In this document: positions 2,529 to 57,193 of the stretch, piece by piece
Layout of the letters: every line of letters begins with the position of its first letter
How positions within the stretch are numbered: the stretch's first letter is position 1
Origin: Patescibacteria group bacterium
GTDB lineage: Bacteria; Patescibacteriota; Minisyncoccia; Phycocordibacterales; SBAW01
Assembly (NCBI GenBank): GCA_016176685.1
Contig: JACOWS010000001.1
Location: 78,113 to 142,112, forward strand
Direction of reading: 5' to 3'
DNA: 64,000 nt
Program-made: the position numbers and the translations under genes
Notes under the pieces: model-generated
What the model was told of the DNA's origin: nothing
The model's database searches: none
The model's input: the letters and a program-made list of their open reading frames with translations, nothing else

Positions 2529-3953
2529 TTACCCAAAAAGCCGAAATAACATGCGCAAAAGTTTTTTTGAACGCGGGTTTAATGCACGCCCTTGGTATGT
2601 TTGAGCGGCCCGCTTATTGATTCTTGCGGCGGTCGGGTACGGATAAATCTTAGCAAATAAATCGGCAAGAGACAGGTGGTGTGTCTGCGCCAATATAAGT
2701 TCCTGTATAAGTTCACCGGCATGTGGAGCAATCATCGTCCCGCCCAATATGTTCCCTTTCTTTGAAACATAAATATTTAACAGGCCATCGCGATAATCGT
2801 CTGTGATGGCGCGATCATCATGAGAGAAATGTTCTGTAACTGTTTCGTACTGGACACCGCGCTCTTTAAGCTCCTCGGTGGAAATGCCGAATGTTGCAAT
2901 TTCCGGGTCGGTGAATGTAACCCAAGACAGGTTGTCGTTAACGAGCTTCTGTTTAAACGGGGAAAACCAATTATGGATGATGGTACTGGCATGAAGTTCG
3001 GCTGCGTGCGTAAATTGATATTGTCCGGCGACATCACCGCACACGACAATATTTTTATTGGTTGTGCGCAGGTACTGGTCGACTTTCAGTTTCTGCCCGC
3101 TTTCCTCAAGTTCGATATGAGCCTTTCCCAGATCAAGGCCTTCAATAGCAAGCTGCCTGCCAATACCTACAAATAATGAGTCCACCGGAAGCGACAGTTC
3201 ACGCCCCAAAACTTCCACGACGAGCTCTCTGCCCTCTCGTATATTTTTTGCCCGAGCATGGAAAAGGATATTCATTCCTTCGCCCACCAGTCGCTTATAC
3301 AAAATATCGGTAATATCTTTATCCTCTTTTGGAAGAAATTTTTCTCCTTGTTCAAGAATGGTAACCTGTGAACCCAGGCGTTGAAACGCTTGTCCGAGCT
3401 CTATACCGATAGGGCCCCCGCCTATGACGACAAGATTTTTAGGAAGAAAATCTATGTTGAAGATATTTTCATTGTTAAAGACCCGCGTATGCTCTATTCC
3501 CGGCAATGATATAGCGCGTGGTCGCGACCCCGTTGCCAACACAATACGCTTGCCTTCATACGCCACGCCTCCGACCATAACCTTATTTTGACTAATAAAT
3601 TTAGCTTCCCCCAGAACGACCGACATACCGCTTTTCCGAAACCAATCGGCATTTTCATGCTCGCGGATGATATCCTGCCTACTTTTCACATACGCCATAA
3701 CCGCCCGCATGTCCACCGTACCGGTATGGGTAATCCCAAATTTTTTAATGGTATGTCCCGCATGTACCGCGCGAGCGACATGAATAAGCGCTTTGCTTGG
3801 TACACAACCAAAATTCAAACAATCGCCGCCGATGCTCTTATCACTTTTATCAATGAGCAGGGTTGACAATCCTATGCGGTTTGCAAAAGCGGCGATATTC
3901 AACCCTCCGGAACCGGCGCCGATGACCATAACATCAAATATTTTATTTTTCAT
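2529..3953 (-). CDS. FAD-dependent pyridine nucleotide-disulfide oxidoreductase (Lpd/MerA-like, no C-terminal Cys pair)
   Basis: N-terminal VMVIGAGSGG FAD fold; redox-active GGDCLNFGCVPSK disulfide; second NAD(P) Rossmann VVIGGGPIGIELG. Confidence 0.8.
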   Translation of the reverse strand: MKNKIFDVMVIGAGSGGLNIAAFANRIGLSTLLIDKSDKSIGGDCLNFGCVPSKALIHVARAVHAGHTIKKFGITHTGTVDMRAVMAYVKSRQDIIREHENADWFRKSGMSVVLGEAKFISQNKVMVGGVAYEGKRIVLATGSRPRAISLPGIEHTRVFNNENIFNIDFLPKNLVVIGGGPIGIELGQAFQRLGSQVTILEQGEKFLPKEDKDITDILYKRLVGEGMNILFHARAKNIREGRELVVEVLGRELSLPVDSLFVGIGRQLAIEGLDLGKAHIELEESGQKLKVDQYLRTTNKNIVVCGDVAGQYQFTHAAELHASTIIHNWFSPFKQKLVNDNLSWVTFTDPEIATFGISTEELKERGVQYETVTEHFSHDDRAITDDYRDGLLNIYVSKKGNILGGTMIAPHAGELIQELILAQTHHLSLADLFAKIYPYPTAARINKRAAQTYQGRALNPRSKKLLRMLFRLFG

Positions 3954-5556: not shown

Positions 5557-7956
5557 CTATATTTTATGTCCGCCAAAAACAGCGCGAAGCATGGAAAGAA
5601 TTTTTCCCGTAAATGTCGGGTTCTTTTTTGAGCGTACACGGAAGAGATACGAATCTTTTATGACAGGAGCAGAAACGTCGAGCTCTTTTGCAGTCTGTAC
5701 CGTCCATTCTCCCTCGCCGGTATGAGCCACGGTACTGGATGCTTTTTTCAAGTCATCGCCATACTCTTTAAACCCCTCTTCCAGCCACCCGGTAAGTCGT
5801 GAGGTAATAATGCTGTTTTGATTGTACACATTGGCAACCTCTCGCAGACGAAACTTAAACGGCGCTTTTTGAAGTATTGCAAACCCTTCCGAGAGCGCCT
5901 GCATCATCCCATACTCAATGCCGTTATGAACCATTTTTGCGAAGTGTCCCGCTCCAGCCGCTCCCATATGTCCAGAAGTCGTATCAGACATCGCGTCAAA
6001 AATTGATTTACTGTTCTCATATATTTTTTTATCTCCCCCCACCATAATGGCAAATTTTCCAAGGGCGATAGAGACTGGTCCGCCGGAGACGCCCACATCG
6101 AGAAAATGGATTCCTTTTGCTTTCAATCGCTTTCCTCGACGAACAGAGTCTTTATAGAAAGAATTACCACCGTCAATTACGGTGTCGTCTCTTTTGAGTA
6201 ATTGTGAAAGGCCATTTTGCTTCATCCCGGGCGAAGTCGATTGACCAAAGAGTATCTCGTCCACCGGTTTCCCGGCCGGGACCATAAGCCATATGGTTCG
6301 CGGAGGGGAAAGTTTTTCCACAAATTCCGAAAGAGAATATGCGCCGACCACGCCTTCTTTCTCAAGCTCTTTTGTGGCTTCAGGCGGCGTGTTGAATCCA
6401 ACAACCCTCCATTTTTTTATACTTAGGCGTCTTGCAAGATTGGCACCCATTTTCCCTAAACCGATAATGCCAATCTCTCCGATGTGGTTGCCTACTTCTT
6501 TATCTGCACTGTCTGACAATTCTCTCGTGAAAGACGGGCCGGGGGTACTGTCGGGTTTATATTCGGTCAAAGGCACGAGATTTTGCCTCCATCCCTCTAC
6601 TACCGGATCGGTAAATTTCCAAGATACCAGCACCTCATCGGAAGAGATAAACAAGGTTTGGTCACCTCCCATGGCAGTATTGATAATTTTTGAATACTCT
6701 TCTATATACTGAACTTTTGTCTCTTTTTCATACAAAAAGAAAGAGAAAACGCGTTCTTCTATGGCTTTTTCAAAACCTGGTTTTTTTGTCCAAAAATGTA
6801 TGATGACTTCATCGTTTGGTTCAAGACGAAACACAATTCTGTTTGGAGCATGCGGCCTTTGTGCACACAGAAGACATATTTTTGGGTGCCTAAGCGTCAA
6901 TACTATTTCTTTACGGGCTTCTCCCATGCGCTTCCCAGCTTCCATATATATGGGAATCCCGCTCCAACGAGGATGCAGGAGCTCTGTTTTTAGAGCGAAG
7001 TATGTTTCCGTCTCCGAATTTTGAGCTACCCCCTTTATATCTTTGTAGTTACGGTACTGTGATCTGAAAGTTTCTTTCCGCAGGGTTTCCTCTGTCCACG
7101 GTTTAAGCGTTTCCAAAATAGTTGCTCTGTTTTTCCGTATCCCGCCAGCATTCATATCGGCAGGGTACTCCATAGTAATCGCGGCCAGCATGGTAAGAAT
7201 ATGGTTTTGTCCGACATCACGAAGCGCTCCGACTGAATCATAAAAACCTCCTCTGTCTTCTACCCCAATAGATTCAAGCAGGCGGATATCAATCCGCTCA
7301 ATCATGGTGTTGTCCCAAGCATTCTCAAAAAGATTATTTGAGAAACGAAAGTTTTCTATTCCCTGAATAATTTCCTTGTATAAGTAATGGTCGATTCTAT
7401 ACATTTGCTCTTCTTTGAAATAAGTGGAGAGGAGCGATTGCAGTTTTTTGGCGCTTGACAGATCCGTCCCGAATGGTTTTTCAATCAAAATACGGCTCCA
7501 CCCCATATCTCCTCCGCAGGGCAAGTTAAGTTTTGCTAGAGCGAGATTTTTGAAGATTCGCTCATACGAAGACGGCGGTACGGCAAGATAAAAAAGTTTA
7601 TTGGCGCATATACCCCAACCGTTTTCTATCTCTGCAATGCGGTCTGATAAAGATTGAAACGCTCCCACGTCCTCGAATGTTCCTGCGTGATAGGTGAAGA
7701 GTTCAAAGAAACGGTCAATCTTTTTATCTTCTATTTTTGAATCTGCATGTTTTTTTACCGCTTGGAGAATCAGATTTTTAAACTCTTTATCCGAAAACTC
7801 TCTTCGTGAAAACCCTATGACAGACAAGCGTTCCGGCAAGCGACCATGCTGAAATAGGTGCCAAAGGGACGGTATAATCTTTTTGGCGGCCAAATCTCCC
7901 GTTACACCAAAAATAGTGAAGATGGAAGGCGTATTTTTTATGTTTTCACTACTCAT
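5557..7956 (-). CDS. zwf: fused glucose-6-phosphate dehydrogenase / 6-phosphogluconate dehydrogenase (Zwf-Gnd)
   Basis: N-terminal half has G6PD signatures (FGVTGDLAAKKIIPSL NADP site; EKPFGTDL; C-terminal YKPDSTPGP). C-terminal about 300 aa is a short-type 6PGDH (IGIIGLGKMGANLARRL Rossmann, GHFAKMVHNGIEYGMMQ). Start taken at MSSENIK (7956). Confidence 0.8.
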   Translation of the reverse strand: MSSENIKNTPSIFTIFGVTGDLAAKKIIPSLWHLFQHGRLPERLSVIGFSRREFSDKEFKNLILQAVKKHADSKIEDKKIDRFFELFTYHAGTFEDVGAFQSLSDRIAEIENGWGICANKLFYLAVPPSSYERIFKNLALAKLNLPCGGDMGWSRILIEKPFGTDLSSAKKLQSLLSTYFKEEQMYRIDHYLYKEIIQGIENFRFSNNLFENAWDNTMIERIDIRLLESIGVEDRGGFYDSVGALRDVGQNHILTMLAAITMEYPADMNAGGIRKNRATILETLKPWTEETLRKETFRSQYRNYKDIKGVAQNSETETYFALKTELLHPRWSGIPIYMEAGKRMGEARKEIVLTLRHPKICLLCAQRPHAPNRIVFRLEPNDEVIIHFWTKKPGFEKAIEERVFSFFLYEKETKVQYIEEYSKIINTAMGGDQTLFISSDEVLVSWKFTDPVVEGWRQNLVPLTEYKPDSTPGPSFTRELSDSADKEVGNHIGEIGIIGLGKMGANLARRLSIKKWRVVGFNTPPEATKELEKEGVVGAYSLSEFVEKLSPPRTIWLMVPAGKPVDEILFGQSTSPGMKQNGLSQLLKRDDTVIDGGNSFYKDSVRRGKRLKAKGIHFLDVGVSGGPVSIALGKFAIMVGGDKKIYENSKSIFDAMSDTTSGHMGAAGAGHFAKMVHNGIEYGMMQALSEGFAILQKAPFKFRLREVANVYNQNSIITSRLTGWLEEGFKEYGDDLKKASSTVAHTGEGEWTVQTAKELDVSAPVIKDSYLFRVRSKKNPTFTGKILSMLRAVFGGHKI

Positions 7957-7972
7957 TGTCTTTATGTTGCCA

Positions 7973-8188
7973 TTATGCAAGCAACCCCATAACCTGAAAG
8001 ATATACCCGACAATGATTAACATGATACCCGCAATCCCCATGATTCGCTCCGTCCCCATTTCTTTTACGACACGAGAATCAATCGCGTGCTCTTTACGCG
8101 CACGATCGTGCACCTGAAGAACGGTATAGGCAATCAGAACGGTTCCGATGACATCAAGAGTAATTCCGATAATTAAGAAGGCTGTCAT
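7973..8188 (-). CDS. small membrane protein (hypothetical)
   Basis: 71-aa ORF with two TM helices, co-directional in island operon. Confidence 0.35.
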   Translation of the reverse strand: MTAFLIIGITLDVIGTVLIAYTVLQVHDRARKEHAIDSRVVKEMGTERIMGIAGIMLIIVGYIFQVMGLLA

Positions 8189-8613
8189 ACAAATATTTTT
8201 TTAGTAAGATACATTGAAAGAGGCAGTAAGAAAGTCATTTGAAGAATCGGGGTAAGGCCGACCTTTAGATACGGAATAATCGGCATACCCTCCGCATAAG
8301 CCCATCGCTCGAACAGCAAGGCGCGCCATTCAATCCCTACGGCTATTAAGAATCCAATGACGGCAAAAACGGCAAAATCTTTTTTGTTTAGCGTAGAAAT
8401 CCAATTACGGTCATTTTTTAATAACGCGACAATAAAATAAACAAATAAGGTAACGGCGACATCGCCTATGGTGCCAACTACACATATCGGGAAATGCAAA
8501 GAAAAAGATGCATACCCTTGGTACAAAGGCGCTTGCATATTCTCCCAGACGACATGCAGAACAAACGCAATAAGAGATAAAAAAATAATTTGTTTTCCTA
8601 CTTTCATATACAA
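8185..8613 (-). CDS. membrane protein (hypothetical)
   Basis: 142 aa, 4 TM helices, immediately downstream of merA-like gene, 4-nt overlap. Confidence 0.45.
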   Translation of the reverse strand: MYMKVGKQIIFLSLIAFVLHVVWENMQAPLYQGYASFSLHFPICVVGTIGDVAVTLFVYFIVALLKNDRNWISTLNKKDFAVFAVIGFLIAVGIEWRALLFERWAYAEGMPIIPYLKVGLTPILQMTFLLPLSMYLTKKIFV

Positions 8614-10031
8614 CAGCTTAGTTTAGAAATATCTTTCGTAAATGAAAGTGCGACAATCTTTATCGCCTCCGATAGAGTAGGAAACATCGGGAGCGAATTG
8701 ACCACATCGTCAATCGTATTTTTGTTTTTTATGAGCATCATCGCCTCGGCAATCAGCTCGCTCGCATTTGGAGCGAGAATATGAACGCCTAAGATTTGTT
8801 TTGTGTGCGGATGGATCGCCATTTTTATCATTCCCTCGGTGCGATGAGTAATGATCGCTTTCGGTACATCGGCAAGCGAAACGGTGCGGCAGGCGCACAC
8901 CCCCATTTGCTTCATCTGCTCGTCCTCGGTGAAGCCGACACCGGCGAGTTGTGGGTCGGTAAAAATAGCGTAAGGGACAGTGTGATAGTCAATAAACAAT
9001 TGCGCGTCTTTGAGGGCGTTTTCAGCGGCGAGCGTGCCCTCGCGTCCGGCGGTTGACTCCAGCCGCAAGGGTCCGCTCGTAACATCGCCGACCGCAAAAA
9101 TATTTTTGTTGGAAGTTTGAAAATTTTGATTAACGATAACCGCCTGCCGCTTATCTACTTCAACGCCGGCCAAATCAAGTCCCAGTCCTTGCGTGTTGGG
9201 TGTTTTGCCCGCCGCCAAAAGTATTTCATCTCCCGATACTTCTTCCGATTTTCCATTTACGAGATACGAGATTATCTTTTTATCGTTTTCTTTTCGCGCG
9301 CTTTTCACCTCGACATTGGTCTTGATGGTAATTCCTTCTTTTGACAACACTTCGGCGAGTCGGTCGGTGAGCGTTTTTTCAGAGTGCGGAAAAATTGAAT
9401 CGCCGCGTTGTAAAATAGTTACCTTTGTGCCAAAACGGCTGAACATTTGGGCAAATTCCAAGCCAAGCGGGCCCGCGCCGATGATAACCAATTCTTTCGG
9501 CTGACGCGGAAGGCGCAGTGCCTCAATATGCGAGACAAATCCTACTTCTTTAATTCCTTCAATCTCCGGAACATTGGCGGTCGAGCCGGCAGCGATAATA
9601 AATTTTTCCGCGCTCAACTTTTCGCCGGCTTGCCCCGAGCTTGTCGAGCGGGTCACTTCCACCTCGTTTTCGGAAACAAATGTTGCTTTTCCCTCAACGA
9701 GCGTTACATACTCTAGACTTTTCAGTACCTTCTCGTATTTTTCTTGACGCAATTTGTCCACAAGCGAGAGTTCATCTTGCACGACTTTTTGAAAATCAAA
9801 ACTTTTTACTTCAAGCTCAACACCGGCGACGCCGTGATGTTTGGCGTGGTGCAAAATTTCTCCGGCCCAGAGAAGCGTCTTTGACGGTACGCACCCGACA
9901 TTGACGCAAGTGCCGCCGAGCGGAAGCCCGTCATTGATGATCGCCGTTTTCGCCTTCAGTTCGTTGGCACGGATAGCGGAGGCAAATGCGCCTGCGCCGC
10001 CGCCGATGATGATTAGGTTAAATTCTTGCAT
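8604..10031 (-). CDS. merA: mercuric reductase-like flavoprotein (MerA core, no N-terminal metal-binding domain)
   Basis: IIIGGGAGAF FAD site; GGTCVNVGCVPSK redox disulfide; C-terminus ...KDISKLSCCI matches MerA C-terminal vicinal Cys pair (Tn501 ...KDVKQLSCCAG). Confidence 0.75.
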   Translation of the reverse strand: MQEFNLIIIGGGAGAFASAIRANELKAKTAIINDGLPLGGTCVNVGCVPSKTLLWAGEILHHAKHHGVAGVELEVKSFDFQKVVQDELSLVDKLRQEKYEKVLKSLEYVTLVEGKATFVSENEVEVTRSTSSGQAGEKLSAEKFIIAAGSTANVPEIEGIKEVGFVSHIEALRLPRQPKELVIIGAGPLGLEFAQMFSRFGTKVTILQRGDSIFPHSEKTLTDRLAEVLSKEGITIKTNVEVKSARKENDKKIISYLVNGKSEEVSGDEILLAAGKTPNTQGLGLDLAGVEVDKRQAVIVNQNFQTSNKNIFAVGDVTSGPLRLESTAGREGTLAAENALKDAQLFIDYHTVPYAIFTDPQLAGVGFTEDEQMKQMGVCACRTVSLADVPKAIITHRTEGMIKMAIHPHTKQILGVHILAPNASELIAEAMMLIKNKNTIDDVVNSLPMFPTLSEAIKIVALSFTKDISKLSCCI

Positions 10032-10090
10032 AAAGTTATGCGGGAAGACGCTCCTTGAGCATATCAGCAACGGCGGAAAATGTATATTGA

Positions 10091-11398: not shown

Positions 11399-11423
11399 AG
11401 ATTTTAGAATAGATTATTACAAT

Positions 11424-12654: not shown

Positions 12655-12666
12655 TGATGTATAGGT

Positions 12667-13173: not shown

Positions 13174-13184
13174 ATGCTTGGACT

Positions 13185-13421
13185 TTACGTAATCCCCAAA
13201 AGCTTTCGAAGTTTTGGCTCGTCAAAACCCGTTACCATCTCATTATCGACCAAAATGACCGGTACGCCCATTTGGCCACTTTTTTGAATCATTTCATCAC
13301 GTCTCGCAGAATCTTCCGAAACGTCATAGTCAGTGAACGCAATAGTGTGTTCCTTGAAAAATTCTTTAGTCGCATGACAGAAGTGACACGTTGGCGTTGA
13401 ATACATAATTACGTTTTTCAT
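13185..13421 (-). CDS. glutaredoxin/NrdH-like redoxin
   Basis: MYSTPTCHFCHATKEFF CxxC at the N-terminus of a ~78-aa thioredoxin fold; GVPVILVDNE motif. Confidence 0.7.
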   Translation of the reverse strand: MKNVIMYSTPTCHFCHATKEFFKEHTIAFTDYDVSEDSARRDEMIQKSGQMGVPVILVDNEMVTGFDEPKLRKLLGIT

Positions 13422-13466
13422 AGTGTTTTTAAGTTATTTTTTAATTACATTACTTTGATAATTCTT

Positions 13467-14057: not shown

Positions 14058-14064
14058 ATTACTT

Positions 14065-14373
14065 TTACATTACACTGATAATCTTCTTAATTTTTGGGTC
14101 CTCTATCTTTGGCCTGTAGCACATCATCTGCCCCATCTTTTCGCCCTCGATCATTCTCGACATCTCAAGTATCCGCAGGTGTTGCGATACTGCCGATACT
14201 GAAATATCCAGGACATTGGCAAGGTCGGTGACACACAATTCCCCTTGTTCGATAAGAAGTTTTATAATAAGAAAGCGATTCTGGTCTCCAAGCAAACCAA
14301 ACACATCGACCAAAGAAGTGCTTTGTGCCTTAAGGGTTTCCTTAATTTTTGATATTTGCGCTGGTTCTAACAT
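14065..14373 (-). CDS. ArsR/SmtB-family metalloregulatory transcription factor
   Basis: winged HTH LIIKLLIEQGELCVTDLANVLDISVSAVSQHLRILE; first gene of the minus-strand redox operon. Confidence 0.75.
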   Translation of the reverse strand: MLEPAQISKIKETLKAQSTSLVDVFGLLGDQNRFLIIKLLIEQGELCVTDLANVLDISVSAVSQHLRILEMSRMIEGEKMGQMMCYRPKIEDPKIKKIISVM

Positions 14374-14473
14374 ATTTAAGTATTTGCGTTAATGCTTAAA
14401 TATTACTCCCACCCATAACAATAGTCAAATCCATCATGTGGATAACCGAACCGTACCATTCGCTTCGCTACTA

Positions 14474-14545
14474 TCCTCTCGGCAGGAATCGAACCTGCAT
14501 CGCCTCCTTCGGAGGGAGGTATCTTATCCATTAGACTACGAGAGG
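14474..14545 (-). tRNA. tRNA-Arg (anticodon CCG)
   Basis: reverse complement folds as CCTCTCG/CGAGAGG acceptor, D-arm GTCT..AGAT, anticodon stem CCTCC/GGAGG with loop CTCCGAA, T-arm GCAGG-TTCGATT-CCTGC; CCA not encoded. Confidence 0.85.
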
Positions 14546-18561: not shown

Positions 18562-18634
18562 CCGCCCGTAGCTCAGTTGGTAGAGCAGGAACCTTTTAAG
18601 TTCAAGGTCGCAGGTTCGATCCCTGCCGGGCGGA
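18562..18634 (+). tRNA. tRNA-Lys (anticodon TTT)
   Basis: CCGCCCG/CGGGCGG acceptor, GCTC-AGTTGGTA-GAGC D-arm, anticodon loop CTTTTAA, GCAGG-TTCGATC-CCTGC T-arm; close to E. coli tRNA-Lys body. Confidence 0.85.
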
Positions 18635-18635
18635 C

Positions 18636-19469
18636 ATGGAAAGTTTTAAGCATAGATGCGTTGTGCTACGGAAACAAGATTACTCTCTCTTGGAAATAGC
18701 TAGGATAACCGGTAGGCCGAAGTCATCAGTGTATTTCCATATCCGCAACATACCGCTCAGCCCTAGGAAATATCAAAAAATACACGCACTCAATATACAA
18801 CACCTTCTTCGGGTTGCCCGATCTAGAAAAGGAAAGAGTATAAGGGAGTTTAAAAAAATCTACCGATGGAACCCGGAGAATGTATCGCTAGTTGCCCACC
18901 TTCTTTTCGATGGCGAAATAAAACGAAGTGGTTGTGTATACAATAACCGCAACAAAATATTGTTAAAAAAGGTCGAGGTGAGTATGAAGAAGATGTATCG
19001 TTTTTCTCCAACACGCTATTACAACCCAAACACCGGTGTCTCACGAATAAGTTATTTTAACGTGGCACTAGGAAATTACATGGAGCAAAAAGCAAAAGAA
19101 CTGTGGCAGTGTCTTGGGGAATTACCTCTTGAGACTAAAAGGTCTTTTCTTCGGGCCTTTTTCGACGATGAGGGGTGCATCGATTTTAGACCAAAAACAA
19201 ATTCTAGAAGGATACGCGGCTACCAAAAAGATATCGCAATACTGGAACACGTTTCGCAAGCGTTGCGTAATTTTGGCATTACATCAAGAATCCAAAAACC
19301 AAATGAGGTGGTTATTACCGGCCGCAATAATTTGATCATGTTTCAAAAAGAGATAGGGTTTACCGCTGGAGTGTATATCAACGGGAACCGATCAAATAGT
19401 ATCTGGAAAAAACATCTAGAGAAGCGAGAAATCCTCGCCAGAGCAATTCACTCATATATTAAAGTGTGA
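18636..19469 (+). CDS. LAGLIDADG-family homing endonuclease (double-motif, free-standing)
   Basis: two LAGLIDADG-type motifs LVAHLLFDGEI and LRAFFDDEGCI about 100 aa apart; N-terminal HTH-like LLEIARITGRPKSSVYFHI; GC about 38% versus about 60% in flanks; starts 2 nt after tRNA-Lys. Confidence 0.75.
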   Translation: MESFKHRCVVLRKQDYSLLEIARITGRPKSSVYFHIRNIPLSPRKYQKIHALNIQHLLRVARSRKGKSIREFKKIYRWNPENVSLVAHLLFDGEIKRSGCVYNNRNKILLKKVEVSMKKMYRFSPTRYYNPNTGVSRISYFNVALGNYMEQKAKELWQCLGELPLETKRSFLRAFFDDEGCIDFRPKTNSRRIRGYQKDIAILEHVSQALRNFGITSRIQKPNEVVITGRNNLIMFQKEIGFTAGVYINGNRSNSIWKKHLEKREILARAIHSYIKV

Positions 19470-30932: not shown

Positions 30933-31550
30933 CTATACTTGGTAGCCATAATTTAAAAGCACGGCCCTAAATGATTGATAATCTTTGTATTGTTGGCCAT
31001 TAAACCCAGCCTTATTTGAATTCTGTATGTTTTCATCACGATCATCCCAATACATAATTTCTCCCTTCTCAAATATATTGTATTTTTCTTTAATCCTTTG
31101 ATATATCTTTTCTAAACCTTCAAGGCTGTGTTTGTATACACCCAGACTAGCAGAACAGAATATTTCATCAAAAACCTTACTGTAGGAATATTTGCGCACT
31201 AAATATTGATTTCGATATTTTTCTTGGTTAGTTGCCACACAAACAACCAACCCTTGTTTTTTAAGTTTAGCGATTGACGCGTAAACATCTTCATACAACA
31301 CATTACCAACCGCAAACCAATACTGCATCAGTTCATCGACCGTGCCTTTCCATTTCCATATTTCTACCACTTGTGCAAGTTCCTCTCTGAGGTCTGCTTT
31401 ACCTGTTAGACATTTTTTAAACGGTCCGTCGAAGAAAGGCATCATGGTGGTAAGGTCCACACCAAACTCTTTTGAGTATTGATCACTAAAACGGCCACCG
31501 TGAATTATCATGCCATCATTGTCATAAATTATTACTTTTGGCTTTTTCAT
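30933..31550 (-). CDS. HAD-superfamily hydrolase
   Basis: N-terminal IIYDNDGM (DxDG motif I), low GC. Confidence 0.55.
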   Translation of the reverse strand: MKKPKVIIYDNDGMIIHGGRFSDQYSKEFGVDLTTMMPFFDGPFKKCLTGKADLREELAQVVEIWKWKGTVDELMQYWFAVGNVLYEDVYASIAKLKKQGLVVCVATNQEKYRNQYLVRKYSYSKVFDEIFCSASLGVYKHSLEGLEKIYQRIKEKYNIFEKGEIMYWDDRDENIQNSNKAGFNGQQYKDYQSFRAVLLNYGYQV

Positions 31551-31591
31551 AAAACTTGATTTGCTAGCTGCGCGAGGCAGTATCGATAACA

Positions 31592-32002
31592 TCAATCAAA
31601 AGGGTTAATTCCTTTCTTGAGGTAGTTACGAATAGGGAGAAAAAGTGGTGAGGGAAGGTCGTCCCATACAAACCATTCCCAACACTCGCACTTTTCTGGC
31701 TCTCTTAACTCAACATTTCCAGACTTCCAATCCGCAACAACAAAAATGGTAACGTAGTGTTTTTTATCCTTTTCAAATAGGTCATTTGTATAGGTACTCT
31801 GTTTTATATTTTTTATTTTTATACCAACTTCCTCTTCAACTTCCCTTGCCGCACATTCTTCAACACTTTCCCAAAATTCAAGATGTCCGCCAGCAAAACA
31901 CCAGGATCCTTCACCGTGAGCATTTTTCCTTTTTCCCAAAAGCACTTTATTGTCTTTTTTAACAATTACTCCGACTCCTACTTTTGGTCTTTGATTTTCC
32001 AT
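31592..32002 (-). CDS. NUDIX hydrolase
   Basis: Nudix box GGHLEFWESVEECAAREVEEEVG (GX5EX7REUXEEXGU). Confidence 0.75.
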   Translation of the reverse strand: MENQRPKVGVGVIVKKDNKVLLGKRKNAHGEGSWCFAGGHLEFWESVEECAAREVEEEVGIKIKNIKQSTYTNDLFEKDKKHYVTIFVVADWKSGNVELREPEKCECWEWFVWDDLPSPLFLPIRNYLKKGINPFD

Positions 32003-32012
32003 TTTATAAAAC

Positions 32013-33110
32013 CTACCGGTTCATGGGCATGGCGAGGTAGAGGAAGGACTCGTCGGAGGAGTCTCTTACCAAAAGCGGTTTGCCGGGGCCGTTAGTCTGT
32101 AGGCGGACACTGTCGCCCACAATAGATTGTAAGCTGTCTGACAGGTAACGACTGTTAAAGTTCATGGTAGCCATTTCGCCGGAAATAGTGGCTTGTATAG
32201 TGGTGGTTTGCTCGCCGACATCCGGGTTGCGCGAGGAAAGGAGTATGGATTTTTTTGAAGGTTCAAAAGTAAGCGACACCTGAGAAAATTTGTCGGAAAA
32301 TATGGAGAGTGATTTAAGCGCCTGTGCAACATCCTCCCTAAGTACAATGGCTTCTGTGGTAAACGTTTTTGGTATTATTTGTTTATAGTTTGGGAATGCA
32401 CCGTCTATAATCCTACTGGTGTAATATACATTCCCCACCTGTGTGGATATCTGATTTTCGTTGTAATAGAGCACGGTTTCTCCTCCCACCACTTCCAAAA
32501 TACGCACCAGTTCTGCAACATTTCTAGATGGTATGAGTAATTGCGGTACATTTCCACCAGACCGCAGTGCTATGGTTTTTTCAGCAAGACGGAAGGAGTC
32601 TGTGGCGGCGGATATGATTTTTCCTCCCTCACCATACACCAAAACGCTTTGAAGTTCCGGTTTTATTGTTGATGTTGAGGTACTATACATCACACTACGC
32701 AGTAGTTTCACAAAATCTGCTGATTTTATTGAAAAAGATGCTGTTGCTGACACGCGCGGCAGTGCCGGAAAGTCTTCATGTGGAATTGTTTTTATTGAAG
32801 CCGTAGAGCGTTCTGTTTCTAATTTACACATCTCTCCCACTAAAGTAACCGAGGTTGTTTTACCGCGCGCATTACTCAAAAAACCGGCTAATATGGAACC
32901 TGGTATGGCAACAGTTCCTTTTTCATTAACTTTTGCCGGTATAGAAATCTCTACACCACACTCAAGATTTGTTGCGTGCAATACTACCCGACCTCCATCC
33001 GCAGTCACAAGGATACTGGAGAGTACCGGTAAGTTTGCTCGCCGTTCAATAAACCTAACCACGGTAGCAACAGCAGTACTAAACTCTTGCGTATTACAAT
33101 TAAACTTCAT
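32013..33110 (-). CDS. dnaN: DNA polymerase III beta sliding clamp
   Basis: 365 aa, three-domain beta-clamp pattern starting MKFNCNTQEFSTAV...; immediately downstream of dnaA. Confidence 0.85.
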   Translation of the reverse strand: MKFNCNTQEFSTAVATVVRFIERRANLPVLSSILVTADGGRVVLHATNLECGVEISIPAKVNEKGTVAIPGSILAGFLSNARGKTTSVTLVGEMCKLETERSTASIKTIPHEDFPALPRVSATASFSIKSADFVKLLRSVMYSTSTSTIKPELQSVLVYGEGGKIISAATDSFRLAEKTIALRSGGNVPQLLIPSRNVAELVRILEVVGGETVLYYNENQISTQVGNVYYTSRIIDGAFPNYKQIIPKTFTTEAIVLREDVAQALKSLSIFSDKFSQVSLTFEPSKKSILLSSRNPDVGEQTTTIQATISGEMATMNFNSRYLSDSLQSIVGDSVRLQTNGPGKPLLVRDSSDESFLYLAMPMNR

Positions 33111-33319
33111 AACTTTCTAATTATTTTCTTATATATAAAAGATTAGTGCTATTAGGGTTGTGTATAGCCTTAATAACCTTAATAAATGTTGTTATATATA
33201 GTAATATAGGGAAAAAACTAGACGTATAGGTTGGTGATTGTGTCTCATAAGTTTGTATATAATTCTGTAAAAATATTTTTTTGTTTTTTATTTTCATACA
33301 TTTCCCTACTATATACACA
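33111..33319. other. AT-rich dnaA-dnaN intergenic region, candidate oriC/DNA unwinding element
   Basis: 209 bp at roughly 25% GC with A/T tracts between dnaA stop and dnaN start; degenerate DnaA-box-like 9-mers (TGTGTATAG, TATACACAC). Confidence 0.35.
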
Positions 33320-34654
33320 CTATTTCAACATAAGGCGTATTTGATGCACCTCTTGCCCTAATAAACTGTCGGTTATGATATCTCTTTTTACTTTGTCACA
33401 TGAGTGTATAACGGTGGTATGATCTCGACCACCCATTTTGTCTCCTATTGATGGGAAAGAGATATGAAAATCTTCACGTAAAATATACATAATAACCTGT
33501 CGCGGCCGCACTATCTCCTTTCGACGTGTTTTTTCGTAAATACTATTTTCATCAATACCGTAGAAGTCTGCAATAGTTTTTACCACCTCTTGTACCGACA
33601 CCACTTTTTTAGGGCTGCCTGCGCCACGCAGTAATACCTTTGCATCGGCGAGGGTTAGTTCGCGCCCGCGCATCTCAAAGTTTATAAGAAGAGTATTAAG
33701 CGCACCCTCAAGCTCACGCACATTCCCTTCCACAGTACTGGCAAGGTATTCAAGCACCTCGTCTGGGAGTATAAAGTTGTGTTGTATTGCTTTGGTTCGC
33801 ACAATAGCGAGCCGCGATTCGTGGTCCGGTGCGGTTATTGAAACGATCATACCCGCGTTGAAACGAGACTTTATTCTGTCTTCGAGATTTTGTATAAGGT
33901 TGGGATGCTGGTCTGAAGAAAAGACCAATTGTTTGTTACTGTCATGCAGGAAGTTAAAAAGGTGAAAAAATTCTTCCTTCGTTTTTTCCATTTTTGCCAA
34001 AAACTGCACATCGTCCATTATTAAAAGATCATATTGCCGGTATTTTTCCTTAAACCACTGCATCTTGCCCGACTGTACCGAGGACACATAGTCCATAGCG
34101 AACTTTTCAGACGTGAGGTAATGTACTTTTCGATCCGGAGTGCTCACTCTAAAATGGTTTCCTATTGCCTGTATAAGGTGTGTTTTACCCAAACCGGTTG
34201 GTCCGTACACTAAAAGCGGATTGTAGGCGATACCCGGACTACGTATAACGGCTTGCGCGGCCGCATGTGCCAGCTCGTTAAAAGGCCCCACCACAAATGA
34301 GGAAAAGGAAAAACGCGGGTTAAGGTTTGTTTTTGTATGGACCGCTTCGAGTTGGAGCTCGGTGGGTGCCGCGGGCGGCCGCATCTCCTCGATTGCCTTT
34401 TTGGGCCCGCGGGAGATAACATACTCCACATTGCGTATAGAGTCGGAAAGATTGCGTAAAGAGCCGAGAATATCTTTATGAAATTTAGTAGAGAGCCAAT
34501 CGCGGGCAAATTGTGATGGCACACCAAGGTGCACCACGCCGTCGTCTACCCGTAGTATGTGTGTATCTTTAAACCAGGTATTAAAATTAGGCCGCGAGAT
34601 AGAAATTTCAAGCTCCACTAATGCGTTTTCCCAAAGTTCTTTCGTGGTAGTCAT
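33320..34654 (-). CDS. dnaA: chromosomal replication initiator DnaA
   Basis: AAA+ Walker [11 protein letters not shown], Walker [11 protein letters not shown]-terminal DNA-binding domain (..[13 protein letters not shown]); start taken at [12 protein letters not shown]. Confidence 0.9.
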
Positions 34655-34768
34655 ACGGGTGTGCGGTACGACAAGGATACGCGAGCGAACCCAATGCGTC
34701 AAAAATCGTTCCATTACCTTTTTTGTGCACAAGTTGTGGAGAATTGGTGGATATCGTATAGTAGACAG

Positions 34769-34903
34769 ATGTCGCAAACATACCAACCTAAAAAAAGAAA
34801 AAGAGCCCGCACGCACGGGTTTCTTAAGCGCTCCAAGAGCACCAGCGGCCGCAGGACCCTTGCTCGCCGCCGTCGCAAGGGGCGGGCGCGCATTGCAGTG
34901 TAA
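34769..34903 (+). CDS. rpmH: 50S ribosomal protein bL34
   Basis: [44 protein letters not shown] matches L34 consensus. Confidence 0.85.
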
Positions 34904-52232: not shown

Positions 52233-53192
52233 TTGTTTGCGCCACCCGCACAAGCGGCGGCTACCCAAGCATTAGCACTCAACTCCCAAACACTTCCCCT
52301 ACTTGCACCGGCGATAAACCTCGACCCAAACCCAGCAAAAGGAGGCGGCGGCATCACCGTGGTTGACGGCACGGCGCTTTTGCCGGCAGAAGGTCCGTCA
52401 GGCACCGCAGCCGACATAGAAGAGTGGCCGACCTCCTCGCAGGTGTCGGTGTATACCGTGCGGCCAGGCGACACCCTGTCGCAGATTGCAGAGATGTACA
52501 ACGTTTCCATCAACACCATCATTTGGTCAAACGACATTGCGGGTGGGGTGATCCGCCCCGGCGACAGTTTGGTAATACTCCCTATCACGGGAATCAAACA
52601 CACGGTGACCAAGGGTGAAACACTTTCCTCAGTAGCTAAAAAGTTTAATAGCGATGCTACCGAAATCGCCCAGTACAACGGTCTTGAGGCGGGTGCGCCG
52701 CTTGCGGTGGGGGCCTCTATAATCATCCCCCATGGTGAGATAGCTGCAGCCCCCGCTCCCGCCAAGAGTACTAAAACAAAAGTTCCTTCCGCACCGCTGC
52801 ATGACGCGGGCGGGCCCGACCTCGGCGGCTACTGGGTCTTGCCTATTGCAAGCGGCATTGTCACCCAAGGGCTCCACGGCTACAATGGCGTTGACATCGG
52901 CGCGCCAAAAGGAACCGATATTTATGCTGCGGCTGGCGGCATTGTGCTGGTTGCACGCTCTAGCGGATGGAACGGCGGCTACGGCATCTACCTGGTTATC
53001 CAGCACGACAACGGCACGCAAACACTCTACTCGCACGCAAGCAAGATACTGGTCTCCGCGGGAGACCGTGTCGCGCAAGGACAAACTATAGCGCTGGTCG
53101 GCGCAACCGGCCTTGCAACCGGCAACCACCTCCACTTCGAAGTCCGTGGCGCCAAAAACCCGCTCGGCAACTTACCAGTCGGCACGCGGTAG
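52233..53192 (+). CDS. LysM-domain M23-family peptidoglycan endopeptidase
   Basis: two LysM repeats (YTVRPGDTLSQIAEMY; HTVTKGETLSSVAKKF) and M23 catalytic motifs (HGYNGVDIG, GNHLHFEV); annotated from a TTG start, but see finding on upstream in-frame signal-like extension. Confidence 0.8.
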   Translation: MFAPPAQAAATQALALNSQTLPLLAPAINLDPNPAKGGGGITVVDGTALLPAEGPSGTAADIEEWPTSSQVSVYTVRPGDTLSQIAEMYNVSINTIIWSNDIAGGVIRPGDSLVILPITGIKHTVTKGETLSSVAKKFNSDATEIAQYNGLEAGAPLAVGASIIIPHGEIAAAPAPAKSTKTKVPSAPLHDAGGPDLGGYWVLPIASGIVTQGLHGYNGVDIGAPKGTDIYAAAGGIVLVARSSGWNGGYGIYLVIQHDNGTQTLYSHASKILVSAGDRVAQGQTIALVGATGLATGNHLHFEVRGAKNPLGNLPVGTR

Positions 53193-53204
53193 TAACCCTC
53201 TCTA

Positions 53205-53241
53205 GAAAAAACCGCCGGCCCCAAAAGGCCGGCGGTTTTTA
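53205..53241. terminator. bidirectional rho-independent terminator
   Basis: AAAAAACCGCCGGCC-CCAAAA-GGCCGGCGGTTTTT. Confidence 0.6.
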
Positions 53242-53269
53242 TAAGACTATCTTCAGGATAGGAGTCCTG

Positions 53270-53542
53270 CTATTTCTTAACTTTCCCCAACACATAGATT
53301 GTGCGGAGGACGTTAGAAGGGTCGGATTGAACATGCAGAATCGTGTATTTTCCAGTCTTCAATAGGGTATTAACTTTATTAGGACCGTTTCTGTCAGTCT
53401 CGGTAACTATTTCGTAAATCACACGGCTCTTGTGCCAGGCCACAACAGAAACAACAATGGCCGCAAAGCTCAGGATTAAAGGTGTGTACTGTAGAATGCT
53501 TCCACCCATTGTGATTATGCGATTTATCAGTTCGTATTCCAA
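53270..53542 (-). CDS. small membrane protein, hypothetical (low GC)
   Basis: 90 aa, one to two TM helices, GC about 40%. Confidence 0.4.
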   Translation of the reverse strand: MEYELINRIITMGGSILQYTPLILSFAAIVVSVVAWHKSRVIYEIVTETDRNGPNKVNTLLKTGKYTILHVQSDPSNVLRTIYVLGKVKK

Positions 53543-53581
53543 AATATAGACTTATTATAGCCTTTTCTATAAGGTTATTCT

Positions 53582-55039
53582 ATGGAAGACGACGAGATGA
53601 AAAAACGATATAGGCAACATGTTGATTCGATAATCAAAAGAGCCCAACTGGTAGCATTTGAAAACTATACACAAATGTTCCCTTGGTTTATCCGAGCTTT
53701 AAGATTGTCTAGAATCCCTTTCTTAAAGAGAAATCATTTTTGGGTCGGAGTGCTCCAGTTAGGCATGTTGAGGAACCTTCCTCGGTTTCAAGGCTGGCTT
53801 AGAGAAACACGAGTAAAGTTAGAGGGCGATGTACTCGGTGCTAAAGAGAGGGAGCATTTAGAACACGTCGCTCTCATTCAACAAGAGTGGATAAGGATAT
53901 ACCAGACCATCATTGACGGAGTTGTGTGGCGTGTTTTAAATTTTAATCGGCCAGTACTTCGTTTGTTGTCGGAGAATGAGGGTCCAGGACATATCCACCC
54001 TCCCTACGCTGATATTTTAAGAAAGTTTATTGACAGCTCTGACACAGTCCTAATCAATGACCTGTCCAGGTATCTTCGCATTGGTGATTTAACAAGGGTC
54101 ACCAAAGAAGGAAAGATACTTTTATATGAGCTTAAGAAAAGTGGCCGTGTTGTTAGTGGTATGTCGGACATCTTCAAAGAGGCGAGAAAGCATGGCTCAG
54201 GCAGTATAAGTAAACAAAGGCATAGACACTGGACAGCTCAAATGAGCATAGCCAGTCAATCAATAAACATCCCTGTTATTTCTGGGGACATGGTTAGAGA
54301 GGATCACCGAGCCGACATAGTTGATTCTAGTATAAAAATCTTCCATCATTTCAAAGCTATAAAAGATCTTATCAAAAAAGCAGACAGAACTGGATTTGAA
54401 CAAAAAGAAGTTGAGGAAGGTTACTTCATCGAGGTTACTGCATTCGATACGATACTTGCTTCGGTCAAGGAAGATGATGTAGAAAAAAATCCGATGATGC
54501 AAAGGAAACTTCATGCTGAAGAACAAAGACCGGAGTGGCTTAAAGCTAAAGCGGCACGGACCATAGATTTATCCAGTCTTGAGTCTTTTGTGTATGAAGG
54601 AACTCAGTTTCCAAGAAATTTCACTCCCCAGTCTGTGTTGCCTTTTTCATCAAGAAACTGTGTCCGTCTAATGATGGGACATCTAGAGATAAGGGTTTAC
54701 TACAACATAGAGTTTTTAAAAAAACGACTCCAAGAGAGGGGTTGGCAAGTTAGAGAAGTAGAGCGTCTCGCGGAGCCGATGAGAGAAAGGACGCTCACTG
54801 GCGAGTTTCTACCCGAGCTACCGAGTGAAGATTTTCTCGATTTGTCTAAACGGGATGGCGACGGAGAGTATCATACAATCGTCCCCCTAACTCTTATTTT
54901 GATTGCTCTTTCCTCTTACTATGCAACAGACTTTCTTCTGAATGCTATAGAAGACGGCTTCGAAAGAAGCAGAATCGAAAGACCTTCGGGCAGACAAGTC
55001 ACGATTAACTTTACTCAGGAGCATGCAGTTTTGGTGTAA
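53582..55039 (+). CDS. hypothetical protein of low-GC islet; possible PD-(D/E)xK nuclease-like core
   Basis: 485 aa, no family recognised; mid-protein IGDLTRVTKEGKILLYELKKS fits a D-x14-E-x-K nuclease-like spacing; GC about 40% versus about 60% in flanks. Confidence 0.5.
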   Translation: MEDDEMKKRYRQHVDSIIKRAQLVAFENYTQMFPWFIRALRLSRIPFLKRNHFWVGVLQLGMLRNLPRFQGWLRETRVKLEGDVLGAKEREHLEHVALIQQEWIRIYQTIIDGVVWRVLNFNRPVLRLLSENEGPGHIHPPYADILRKFIDSSDTVLINDLSRYLRIGDLTRVTKEGKILLYELKKSGRVVSGMSDIFKEARKHGSGSISKQRHRHWTAQMSIASQSINIPVISGDMVREDHRADIVDSSIKIFHHFKAIKDLIKKADRTGFEQKEVEEGYFIEVTAFDTILASVKEDDVEKNPMMQRKLHAEEQRPEWLKAKAARTIDLSSLESFVYEGTQFPRNFTPQSVLPFSSRNCVRLMMGHLEIRVYYNIEFLKKRLQERGWQVREVERLAEPMRERTLTGEFLPELPSEDFLDLSKRDGDGEYHTIVPLTLILIALSSYYATDFLLNAIEDGFERSRIERPSGRQVTINFTQEHAVLV

Positions 55040-55138
55040 GTGGTGCTGTATGCCCCCACGTTCACGTCTCGTGAATGTTTGGTGCCTAGTTGGTGGTATC
55101 TACCATCTCTCAAACCAAGGTTTTCGGGACGCAAAGGA

Positions 55139-55579
55139 TCAACTAATGATTCCCTTGTTCCATGACAAGACAAATTCTGGGTGGAACTTGTGGCCAGACA
55201 CCATCATCTTTGCGATTGTCTCAAATGAAAAAAATTCCACCCTCTCAACTTCTGTGGGGTCTAGGGTAAACGGACCGTTGTGATGAGTTCTGTATATCCA
55301 CAGTTCTGTCTCTCGCGTAACAGATGGCTTCCAAGCCGGATAGGTGTAGTTTTCTTCGGTTACAAACTCAATATCTATTTTGACTCCAAGCTCCTCAAAT
55401 AACTCTCTTTCTGCAGAGGCCTTCTCGGCTTCTCCAGGGTCAATACCACCACCAGCAGAAAAATCCCAGTGTGATGGAAACGAGTCATCATGAGCGGCGC
55501 GCAACTGTAGAGCCAACTCGCCCTTATCATTGAAAACCATTATTGCTGAGCTTTTCTTATGTTCTATCATGAATATCAC
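55139..55579 (-). CDS. NUDIX hydrolase
   Basis: Nudix box GGGIDPGEAEKASAERELFEELG. Confidence 0.7.
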   Translation of the reverse strand: MIFMIEHKKSSAIMVFNDKGELALQLRAAHDDSFPSHWDFSAGGGIDPGEAEKASAERELFEELGVKIDIEFVTEENYTYPAWKPSVTRETELWIYRTHHNGPFTLDPTEVERVEFFSFETIAKMMVSGHKFHPEFVLSWNKGIIS

Positions 55580-55630
55580 TCTACATCAGTACTTTAAGAG
55601 ATGAAACGTTATTTGTGAGGTGAAACTCAT

Positions 55631-57193
55631 TTATGCTTTGTGCCCTCGGTACTGGAGCGCCTCTAGCACGTGCGGCTCTAAAATCTCCGGAGCTCCCTCG
55701 ATGTCTGCTATGGTGCGCGCCACTTTTATCACTCGGTGGAAGGCGCGCGGAGACAGGCTCAATCGCTCGCCCGCTTTTTCTAGCGTGGAGCGCACCTCGG
55801 GTGCCAATGGCACCAGCAGGTCGAGCTCGCGAGGCGATAGGTCGCTGTTCATCTTTCCTTTGGTATTAAATCTTTTTTCCTGCGCGGCGCGCGCTTTTTG
55901 TACCTGTGCCCGTGCCTTTTTTGTCTCACTCCCCTCTTTGTTGCGGTACCCCAGCGTGCGCAACTCCACCGGCCCCATGGTAACCCACAGGTCTACACGG
56001 TCGGCTATGGGGCCGGAGATTTTGCGGCGATAGCGCTCAAGACTCATAGGGGTACAGATGCACGAGAGGTTTGGGTGCCCCCAGTTGCCGCAGGGGCACG
56101 GATTCATTGCCGCCACCAGGCAAAACCGAGCGGGGAATATTGCCGAGCCGCGCGCGCGAGCAACCGATATTACCCTGTCCTCCAGCGGCTGGCGCAGCGC
56201 CTCGATGACCCTCCGGTCAAACTCGGGGAACTCGTCCAGAAACAAAACTCCTCGGTGCGCCAGCGTGGCCTCGCCCGGGCGCGGGGTGGCGCCGCCGCCA
56301 ACTATAGAAACGTAGGAGGAGGTGTGATGCGGCGCGCGCATAGGCGGCATGGTCAAAAGTTTGCCGCGCAGAGTGCCGGCAACCGAGTGTATACTGTTGA
56401 CCTCGAGCATTTCCTCAAAAGTGAGCGGCGGCAAGACAGAGGCAAGCGCGCGCGCAAGCATGGTTTTGCCGGTACCGGGCGGCCCCTGGAGTCCCAGGTT
56501 GTGCCCGCCGGCCGCGGCTATCACCGCCGCGCGCTTGGCGCTTTCCTGCCCGCGGATGTCTTCAAACGCGAATTGCGTTTCTGTTTCACCCGGCTCCAGC
56601 TTGGTTTGCGGAGTGGGGGTAAGGTTCGACCTTGGAGAGCCTTGGTGTAAGGTCGAACCTTTGGCGCTCGTTTTTTTAGTATCCAAATGCTCAACCACTT
56701 CGCGCAAGGTGGAAACACCAAACACGGTGATGCCGGGCACCAGCGCGGCCTCGTCGGCGTTTTCTTTCGGGACAAATACTTGCCGCTTACCCAACCGCTT
56801 TGCCTCTGCCACTAACGGCAAAATGCCGCGCACGCCGCACACTTCGCCCTTAAGCGAAAGCTCGCCGACAAAAAGACACCGCTCGGGGTCAAAGCGTATG
56901 TCTCCCGCCGCCAGGAGGTAGGAGAGTGCAATAGGCAGGTCAAACATCGGCCCCTCTTTTTTTAGGTCGGCGGGCGCTAGCGAAATGACTATCTTTTGGT
57001 TGCGGCTCTTAGGCGAGTCAAAGCCGGCATGTTTTATTGCCGCGGCCACCCGGTCGCGGCTTTCTTCTACCGCTTTGTCGGGGAGCCCCACCAGGGTAAA
57101 AGCGTGGAGACCGCGCGAGAGGTCTGTCTCTACTGACACCAGGTAGGGAGTCAGCGCCAGCGTTTCGGCCCCGTAGACGCGTGCATACTGCAT
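55631..57193 (-). CDS. comM: YifB/ComM-family Mg-chelatase-like AAA+ ATPase
   Basis: N-terminal Lon-protease-like domain (VETDLSRGLHAFTLVGLPDKAV), AAA+ GPPGTGKTMLA, VLFLDEFPEF, C-terminal Mg-chelatase domain. Confidence 0.85.
   Translation of the reverse strand: MQYARVYGAETLALTPYLVSVETDLSRGLHAFTLVGLPDKAVEESRDRVAAAIKHAGFDSPKSRNQKIVISLAPADLKKEGPMFDLPIALSYLLAAGDIRFDPERCLFVGELSLKGEVCGVRGILPLVAEAKRLGKRQVFVPKENADEAALVPGITVFGVSTLREVVEHLDTKKTSAKGSTLHQGSPRSNLTPTPQTKLEPGETETQFAFEDIRGQESAKRAAVIAAAGGHNLGLQGPPGTGKTMLARALASVLPPLTFEEMLEVNSIHSVAGTLRGKLLTMPPMRAPHHTSSYVSIVGGGATPRPGEATLAHRGVLFLDEFPEFDRRVIEALRQPLEDRVISVARARGSAIFPARFCLVAAMNPCPCGNWGHPNLSCICTPMSLERYRRKISGPIADRVDLWVTMGPVELRTLGYRNKEGSETKKARAQVQKARAAQEKRFNTKGKMNSDLSPRELDLLVPLAPEVRSTLEKAGERLSLSPRAFHRVIKVARTIADIEGAPEILEPHVLEALQYRGHKA
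56621..56661. repeat. 42-bp palindromic element (family A) copy 3, in-frame inside comM
   Basis: AAGGTTCGACCTT-GGAGAGCCTTGGTGT-AAGGTCGAACCTT; on the coding (minus) strand it is translated as ...AKGSTLHQGSPRSNLTP... in the inter-domain linker. Confidence 0.75.

Follow-up and report, generated by a model that had tools for sequence, protein, structure and literature searches.

Has a short islet of low G+C content (GC) in the genome of a Patescibacteria group bacterium been acquired from elsewhere, and could the 485-residue protein that it encodes be a nuclease directed against foreign DNA? The islet lies in a stretch of 64,000 nucleotides of contig JACOWS010000001.1, all of which we analyzed and refer to as the window or the 64-kb window. 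The islet and the gene in question are the following.

53197..55600, no strand assigned: inserted low-GC islet between the convergent M23-peptidase and ComM genes, identified by blastn against the relative L045, by GC and by gene absence in relatives
53582..55039, forward strand: gene of the 485-residue protein, a predicted solitary PD-(D/E)xK-type nuclease, identified by the family profile, invariant residues, the AlphaFold2 model and hhalign

On balance, we consider it somewhat probable that the gene encodes an acquired, solitary and mobile PD-(D/E)xK-type nuclease of an undescribed family, likely acting against foreign DNA.

The islet comprises 2404 bp with 42.8% GC, compared with 56.2% in the 10-kb flanks. 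The GC fraction is 0.40-0.46 over positions 53200-55600 and 0.55-0.64 to either side, and the GC at third codon positions is 0.40-0.48 in the three islet genes and 0.63-0.69 in their neighbours. An earlier reading of this DNA (the sequence-only reading) had noticed the low-GC islet with its three open reading frames (ORFs), coding for a 90-residue protein, the 485-residue protein and a convergent NUDIX hydrolase; all three lie where it placed them, and the limits of the islet could be refined to those given above. Of all segments of this length in the 64 kb, only 4.1% have GC as low as the islet. The 64 kb also contains other low-GC stretches, one of which holds dnaA and dnaN at ~45% GC. Low GC alone is therefore no proof of foreign origin here.

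The comparison with relatives, which we retrieved through the ComM protein, proves the insertion. In blastn against the closest relative, L045 (ComM 87% identical), nucleotide homology of 82-85% ends at 53196, just past the stop codon of the M23 gene, and is found again from 55601 onwards, 30 bp after the stop codon of ComM. The flanking genes code for a UvrD/PcrA-like helicase and a LysM-M23 peptidase on the left, and for a ComM/YifB Mg-chelatase-like ATPase and a DksA-type zinc-finger protein on the right. The order p421-DksA-ComM-gap-M23(-UvrD) is kept in eight syntenic relatives with ComM proteins 55-87% identical, and the 90-residue, 485-residue and NUDIX genes are absent from the ComM/M23 gap in all eight. 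The same gene arrangement as in the window was found in two other metagenome assemblies. The locus combines the two features of a genomic island, a presence/absence polymorphism at a conserved syntenic site and an atypical composition, and the segment 53197..55600 is a horizontally acquired insertion. The acquisition proposed from the sequence is thus borne out by synteny in the eight relatives, whose gaps carry different cargo or none.

The gap varies in size from ~100-120 bp (L050, L062, L068) up to 2.5 kb (L048). It contains a 176-residue ORF of no known family in L045, an HhH-GPD glycosylase in L048, L049 and L051, and a 152-residue ORF, NADAR-like by eye, in L046, while L050 has no cargo in its ~120 bp. 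This Patescibacteria lineage has a hotspot for cargo where the 3' ends of the convergent ComM and M23-peptidase genes face each other, and the islet is one of the cargo segments in it. No integrase or repeats were seen at the gap (window 55601-55631 and 53192-53196; loci L045-L052, L062 and L068), and scans for repeats and tRNA genes found no flanking direct repeats, att-like sites, tRNA or recombinase at the islet ends.

The 485-residue protein is identical to the NCBI entry 'hypothetical protein HYS79_00755 [Patescibacteria group bacterium]' and has no match in Pfam, PADLOC (0 families at E<=1), NCBIfam or the PDB sequences (phmmer and profile), with noise only in PHROGs. A word-indexed search identified 20 homologues, down to 24% identity, and a full hidden Markov model (HMM) search from the homologue alignment retrieved 1100 representatives of 50%-identity clusters at E<=1e-3, of which 532 remain at E<=1e-10 and 122 at E<=1e-30. 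Nearly all representatives have 420-490 residues and match end to end. A second word-indexed search with a 57-sequence profile found no further homologues, and scanning 57 diverse members singly revealed no consistent Pfam, PADLOC or NCBIfam family. A pattern scan over one genome per species located members in Saccharibacteria, Dehalococcoidia, Acidimicrobiia, many Streptomyces, Kitasatospora, Planotetraspora and Actinospica. Judged by sequence, the protein belongs to an undescribed family of ~1100 50%-identity clusters in Patescibacteria, Chloroflexota (Dehalococcoidia) and Actinomycetota. Three Streptomyces linear plasmids encode a member, annotated 'hypothetical protein'; plasmid matches were obtained for Streptomyces members only, and the window protein itself had none. 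No member was found among INPHARED phages, nor in IMG/VR by a pattern scan. In other genomes, too, the DNA around the family gene usually has a higher GC than the gene itself.

The sequence-only reading had pointed to a PD-(D/E)xK-like motif in the middle of the protein. The loose pattern D-x(10-20)-[DE]-x-K occurs in 84% of shuffled sequences, with a mean of 2.4 per shuffle, and three times in the real protein. The pattern by itself is thus not above chance, and the motif owes its significance solely to the conservation of its residues across the family. We examined conservation among 139 near-full-length representatives, many of which are just 17-25% identical to the window protein. D112, D169, K185, Q212 and P349 are invariant (139/139), position 183 is E in 136 and D in the other three, and Q59, G113, W116, R117, R123, D160, T162, G366 and G387 are conserved in at least 90%. 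D169 and K185 of the motif and the upstream acidic D112 account for three of these five invariant columns. D112, D169, E183 and K185 together present the PD-(D/E)xK signature, i.e., an acidic residue, followed by D and then by (D/E)-x-K. The parts of the protein are as follows.

53582..54016, forward strand: N-terminal helical region, residues 1-145, with the long helix 87-118 containing D112 (codon 53915-53917), the motif DG-x-x-WR and R123
54017..54256, forward strand: putative catalytic core, residues 146-225, identified by the AlphaFold2 model, conservation and hhalign to YraN
Core strands and helices: beta1 155-158, beta2 170-173, beta3 179-184; helices 194-204 and 211-225
Core residue codons: D169 at 54086-54088, E183 at 54128-54130, K185 at 54134-54136, Q212 at 54215-54217
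54257..55036, forward strand: central and C-terminal alpha/beta region, residues 226-485, with conserved P349, P354, G366 and G387-W388

D112 is a candidate for the first acidic active-site residue. Residues 226-485 contain no invariant acidic residue, and we can only guess that they serve DNA binding or oligomerization.

We modeled the full-length protein with AlphaFold2, with a predicted local distance difference test (pLDDT) score of 80.5 and a predicted template modelling (pTM) score of 0.85. In the model, helix 87-118 is followed by strands 155-158, 170-173 and 179-184, helices 194-204 and 211-225, and strand 227-234. This predicted order would correspond to the canonical alpha-beta-beta-beta-alpha-beta with the motif on the beta2/beta3 hairpin: D112 is located near the end of helix 87-118, D169 opens beta2, E183 and K185 lie at the end of beta3, and Q212 opens the second helix. 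When residues 84-485 were predicted again with the preceding helices removed, pLDDT dropped below 50 at residues 149-195. This loss of confidence in the motif segment shows that it packs on the N-terminal domain. Residues 376-477 also follow an alpha-beta-beta-beta-alpha-beta order, without an invariant acidic residue. The structure search recommended by the sequence-only reading was carried out on the confident full-length model with Foldseek against the PDB; none of the matches was significant, and the sole nuclease listed was lambda exonuclease (E=5.4). The fold-search matches, including Hjc, have weak scores, are given without the aligned residues, and may reflect the C-terminal region instead.

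The Hjc fold match and a marginal NCBIfam YraN match, found for one of the 57 members (E=0.0079), prompted a comparison with YraN. YraN and the archaeal Hjc-type Holliday-junction resolvases are minimal PD-(D/E)xK nucleases. Against the single E. coli YraN, hhalign aligned 'RIGDLTRVTKEG-KILLYELK...SKQ' with a YraN segment that likewise ends in SKQ, with RIGD, ExK and Q in register. Against a profile of 12 YraN sequences, the score rose to 25.1 (E=0.0048) for query residues 146-221 and YraN 27-94, pairing beta1 with beta1, G168-D169 with G48-E49, E183-x-K185 with E64-V-(R/K)66, and K211-Q212 with K-Q. Column-permuted controls scored 12.8 +/- 2.4 with a maximum of 24.3, so that none of the 200 reached 25.1, and the reversed profile scored 14.4. 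The alignment lends modest but independent support to a YraN/Hjc-like nuclease core in the motif segment. The protein is not itself a member of YraN, having no PF02021 or NCBIfam YraN match and 485 residues, whereas YraN/UPF0102 (PF02021), a single-domain protein, and the archaeal Hjc resolvases have ~120-140 residues and lack its 145-residue helical N-terminal domain and 260-residue C-terminal region. Its invariant aspartate also aligns two residues upstream of the catalytic aspartate of YraN, and its gene is accessory and mobile rather than housekeeping. Based on the motif, the predicted hairpin and the YraN register, a nuclease fold is probable. The restriction-endonuclease fold proposed from the sequence thus gains these three arguments but no library match and no significant Foldseek match. 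The protein would then be a metal-dependent DNA endonuclease with a core closest to the YraN/Hjc type and an active site formed by D112 (helix alpha1), D169 (start of beta2) and E183-x-K185 (beta3), with Q212 in the following helix. The N-terminal helical and C-terminal alpha/beta domains might contribute to substrate recognition, oligomerization, or both.

To see how the gene travels, we inspected ~15 independent neighbourhoods of family members, across which no neighbour is conserved. The members P0010 (L004), P0012 (L008) and P0006 (L127), 53-76% identical, each adjoin a large serine recombinase; the three recombinases are orthologous, with 65-72% identity to one another. Recombinase and family genes are divergent in two of these loci, and the third has an 87-residue ORF, the recombinase, a 185-residue ORF and the family gene on the same strand. 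The three modules are listed here.

L004, 6586-9473: recombinase-family-gene module
L008, 1727-4602: recombinase-family-gene module
L127, 67-3727: recombinase-family-gene module

Recombinase and family gene may form a minimal integrative cassette. The gene could be typical cargo of an integrative element, or it could serve the element itself. In the latter case, the protein would be an accessory or addiction/maintenance nuclease of small serine-recombinase elements and the window copy a stranded remnant, which we regard as unlikely. Besides the two gene arrangements around orthologous recombinases, such a role is favoured by more distant serine recombinases, in L007 at a distance of 2.3 kb and in the Dehalococcoidia locus L011, where the recombinase gene converges on the family gene and overlaps it, and by the Streptomyces copies on linear plasmids among insertion sequence (IS) elements and recombinases. 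Other Streptomyces copies lie among IS elements, recombinases and toxin-antitoxin genes. However, a recombinase is missing from the vicinity of the gene in most loci, the window among them, the islet shows no element ends or att-like repeats, and a nuclease gene carried as mobile-element cargo is equally expected of a defence gene. We therefore return to a solitary nuclease against foreign DNA, whose gene would move between genomes alone or with a large serine recombinase and without an obligatory methyltransferase.

The question of a methyltransferase bears on whether the protein might instead belong, as the endonuclease, to a restriction-modification (R-M) system of the conventional Type II, with a protective methyltransferase encoded elsewhere in the genome. 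Two members, P0004 (L125) and P0005 (L001), 64% and 62% identical to the window protein, are each arranged head-to-head, at a distance of 50-70 bp, with an N6_N4 DNA methyltransferase; the L001 enzyme matches the PADLOC model MTase_II at E=1.8e-121, and three more loci have a methyltransferase within 8 kb. Type II endonucleases are well known for lacking detectable sequence families (PMC2441816). The PD-(D/E)xK-like motif, the lack of a detectable family and the two head-to-head methyltransferases indeed recall such orphan-family enzymes. However, an adjacent methyltransferase is the exception, occurring in 2 of 12 Patescibacteria-clade loci, and the two are not orthologous, being 27% identical to each other while their partner family proteins are 84% identical, which makes a classical Type II enzyme unlikely. 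Genuine Type II endonucleases very rarely occur unlinked to their methyltransferase. In the Streptomyces and other loci, no methyltransferase is adjacent, and the islet contains nothing beyond the 90-residue, 485-residue and NUDIX genes and hence no adjacent methyltransferase as a Type II R-M system would have. The 64-kb window as a whole has no ORF of at least 100 residues with the methyltransferase motif [DNS]PP[YFW], and none of the DPPY type lies in the islet or the window. We thus consider the Type II explanation distinctly unlikely.

The methyltransferase gene in L001 (6477-7931, reverse strand), divergent from the family gene, codes for 484 residues that combine a LexA DNA-binding domain, an S24 peptidase and a Type II N6_N4 methyltransferase. 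This enzyme could be SOS-cleavable.

Since no methyltransferase is obligatory, the protein is most likely a one-gene nuclease against foreign DNA, and a nuclease tolerated alone must be restrained by its choice of target or by regulation. It might cut some non-self mark on DNA rather than rely on self-methylation, following the logic of Type IV enzymes and Shedu. Shedu (SduA, DUF4263) is a defence system made of one nuclease gene, whose product combines a variable sensor domain with a PD-(D/E)xK domain. By analogy, our protein would resemble it as one gene in variable islands, without a methyltransferase, that joins a PD-(D/E)xK-like core to non-catalytic domains. However, neither the protein nor its 57 relatives match DUF4263 or the PADLOC Shedu models, and the putative nuclease core is central, whereas that of Shedu is C-terminal. 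Type IV enzymes such as Mrr are solitary, have no cognate methyltransferase and often lie beside unrelated R-M genes. The likeness would again be a solitary nuclease tolerated without a cognate methyltransferase, but no Mrr_cat or Type IV model matches, and no SRA, EVE or winged-helix reader was recognized in the protein or the 57 relatives. A defence role is plausible.

The neighbourhoods also include a Type III Mod/Res pair in L007, a ResIII/SNF2 helicase operon in L005, SocA/Panacea in L037, and in L039 a DUF4365 protein together with a 706-residue trypsin-like protein matching PADLOC RT-Protease models. The sequence-only reading had suggested looking for the gene in defence islands of other genomes; the contexts there resemble defence islands or mobile elements, but they share no common partner gene. 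In one Streptomyces element (L016, L018-L020, L026, L029, L030, L042), the family gene and a Hypoth_Ymh (TIGR02391) gene are convergent with a 4-bp overlap; L042 is pSV2 77341-79415, and a DEAD/DEAH helicase is adjacent on pSV2. We rejected Hypoth_Ymh as a conserved partner because the pairing is limited to this one closely related Streptomyces/pSV2 element, with Ymh proteins more than 90% identical. As a separate observation, L004 contains at 12040-13443, 2.6 kb from the Saccharibacteria member, an RVT_1 reverse transcriptase and a bAvd gene, typical of a diversity-generating retroelement, with an SNase-domain protein alongside.

Several points weigh against a defence nuclease. Neither the protein nor 57 members have a significant match to any nuclease family in Pfam, NCBIfam, PADLOC, PHROGs or the PDB sequences. 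Checking PADLOC for a known defence system was negative as well: no component model of PADLOC-DB v2.0.0 matches the protein, and one of the 57 members gave a marginal AbiEi match (E=0.0098). In the YraN alignment, the HH probability is 7% and the comparator profile is shallow, with an effective number of sequences (Neff) of 2.2, because the homologue search gave only enterobacterial sequences. D169 stands opposite YraN E49 instead of the canonical D51, and the residue opposite D51 is T171, which is not invariant. The defence-like contexts come from ~15 neighbourhoods without a background comparison, and the methyltransferase scan covered the 64-kb window only, so an unlinked methyltransferase elsewhere is possible. 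Finally, identity with the very-short-patch repair endonuclease Vsr had to be rejected, as the single Pfam match, at 2.2e-6, involves residues 1-36 of P0046, an N-terminal extension outside the family core; phmmer with an E. coli Vsr sequence found only a short 'LQERGWQV' resemblance. The extension of P0046 corresponds to the first half of the Vsr domain and is probably a gene-fusion or gene-call artefact beside a vsr remnant.

These points raise the possibility that the protein is not a nuclease, the D/D/E-K/Q set serving other chemistry or structure and the PD-(D/E)xK resemblance being convergent. Such an explanation would agree with the loose motif being expected by chance and with the lack of significant matches, by sequence, to nuclease families and solved nucleases and, by the full-length model, to any nuclease. 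Given the invariant residues and the YraN register described above, we judge it quite improbable and retain a nuclease against foreign DNA.

The remaining features of the islet are the following.

53207..53240, no strand assigned: perfect 14-bp inverted repeat with a 6-nt loop, flanked by an A-run and a T-run, from a repeat search (100% complementary)
53270..53542, reverse strand: 90-residue ORF with a TTG start and one predicted transmembrane helix (residues 16-34, Kyte-Doolittle 2.07)
55139..55579, reverse strand: NUDIX hydrolase (PF00293) of 146 residues from GTG (143 residues in public gene calls), convergent with the 485-residue gene

From its sequence, the hairpin at 53207..53240 looks like a bidirectional intrinsic terminator for the M23 gene and the 90-residue gene; scans of the islet found no Rfam family above threshold and promoters or terminators at background level. 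Gene calls in two further assemblies of this organism include the 90-residue ORF as well; it has no family match in Pfam, PADLOC, NCBIfam or PHROGs. It was rejected as a conserved partner, with no homologues beside other family members. The NUDIX protein matches PF00293 at E=5.4e-17 (62.5 bits, gathering cut-off 21.1) and the PADLOC candidate PDC-S07 at E=1.6e-9, and remains under the cut-off for every NCBIfam equivalog. The gene is co-acquired cargo of the same insertion and was likewise rejected as a conserved partner, being found within 5 kb in only two other family loci. That the two enzymes form a nucleotide-scavenging pair, degrading exogenous or host DNA in a Patescibacteria cell unable to make nucleotides, is very improbable: their co-acquisition in one islet of the same GC and the suggestion, mentioned in a paper about gene exchange in Patescibacteria, that epibionts may use R-M systems to source nucleotides from exogenous DNA (PMC12455944) speak for it, but NUDIX is rarely near other members, the family is also common in free-living Streptomyces, and no signal peptide or secretion signal is evident by eye in the 485-residue sequence.

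Other low-GC stretches of the window deserve mention in their own right. The genes dnaA (33320..34816, reverse strand) and dnaN (32013..33110, reverse strand) reside in a stretch of 41-45% GC (30933-34816) in a genome of ~55% GC, together with a second NUDIX gene (31592..32002, reverse strand) and a HAD hydrolase (30933..31595, reverse strand); island-like composition is unusual for essential replication genes. A LAGLIDADG_3 homing-endonuclease-like ORF (18636..19469, forward strand, 41% GC) begins one base past a tRNA-Lys gene (18562..18635, forward strand). A further low-GC block at ~1600-14400 (~44%) ends beside a tRNA-Arg gene (14474..14545, reverse strand) and carries a fused glucose-6-phosphate dehydrogenase/6-phosphogluconate dehydrogenase (5557..8013, reverse strand) and two pyridine-nucleotide disulphide oxidoreductases (2529..3953 and 8604..10070, both reverse strand). 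This block may represent a metabolic genomic island.

The finding itself is modest, an undescribed family in a well-known superfamily and in a typical island setting, and new PD-(D/E)xK families turn up regularly in genomic islands. A bolder version, which we find rather doubtful, would have a widespread one-gene nuclease against foreign DNA with new sensor domains, namely the helical N-terminal domain and a degenerate nuclease-like C-terminal domain, spreading together with a large serine recombinase of its own as a minimal cassette of two genes, and belonging to the few defence functions kept by streamlined Patescibacteria. That the gene is repeatedly paired with large serine recombinases of one lineage points to a very small mobile cassette. 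If the favoured reading of a mobile, solitary nuclease against foreign DNA is true, a fold, an active site and a role open to testing could be assigned to ~1100 clusters of 'hypothetical proteins', and the family would be a candidate for a defence or restriction enzyme encoded by one gene and overlooked by the present libraries for finding defence systems.

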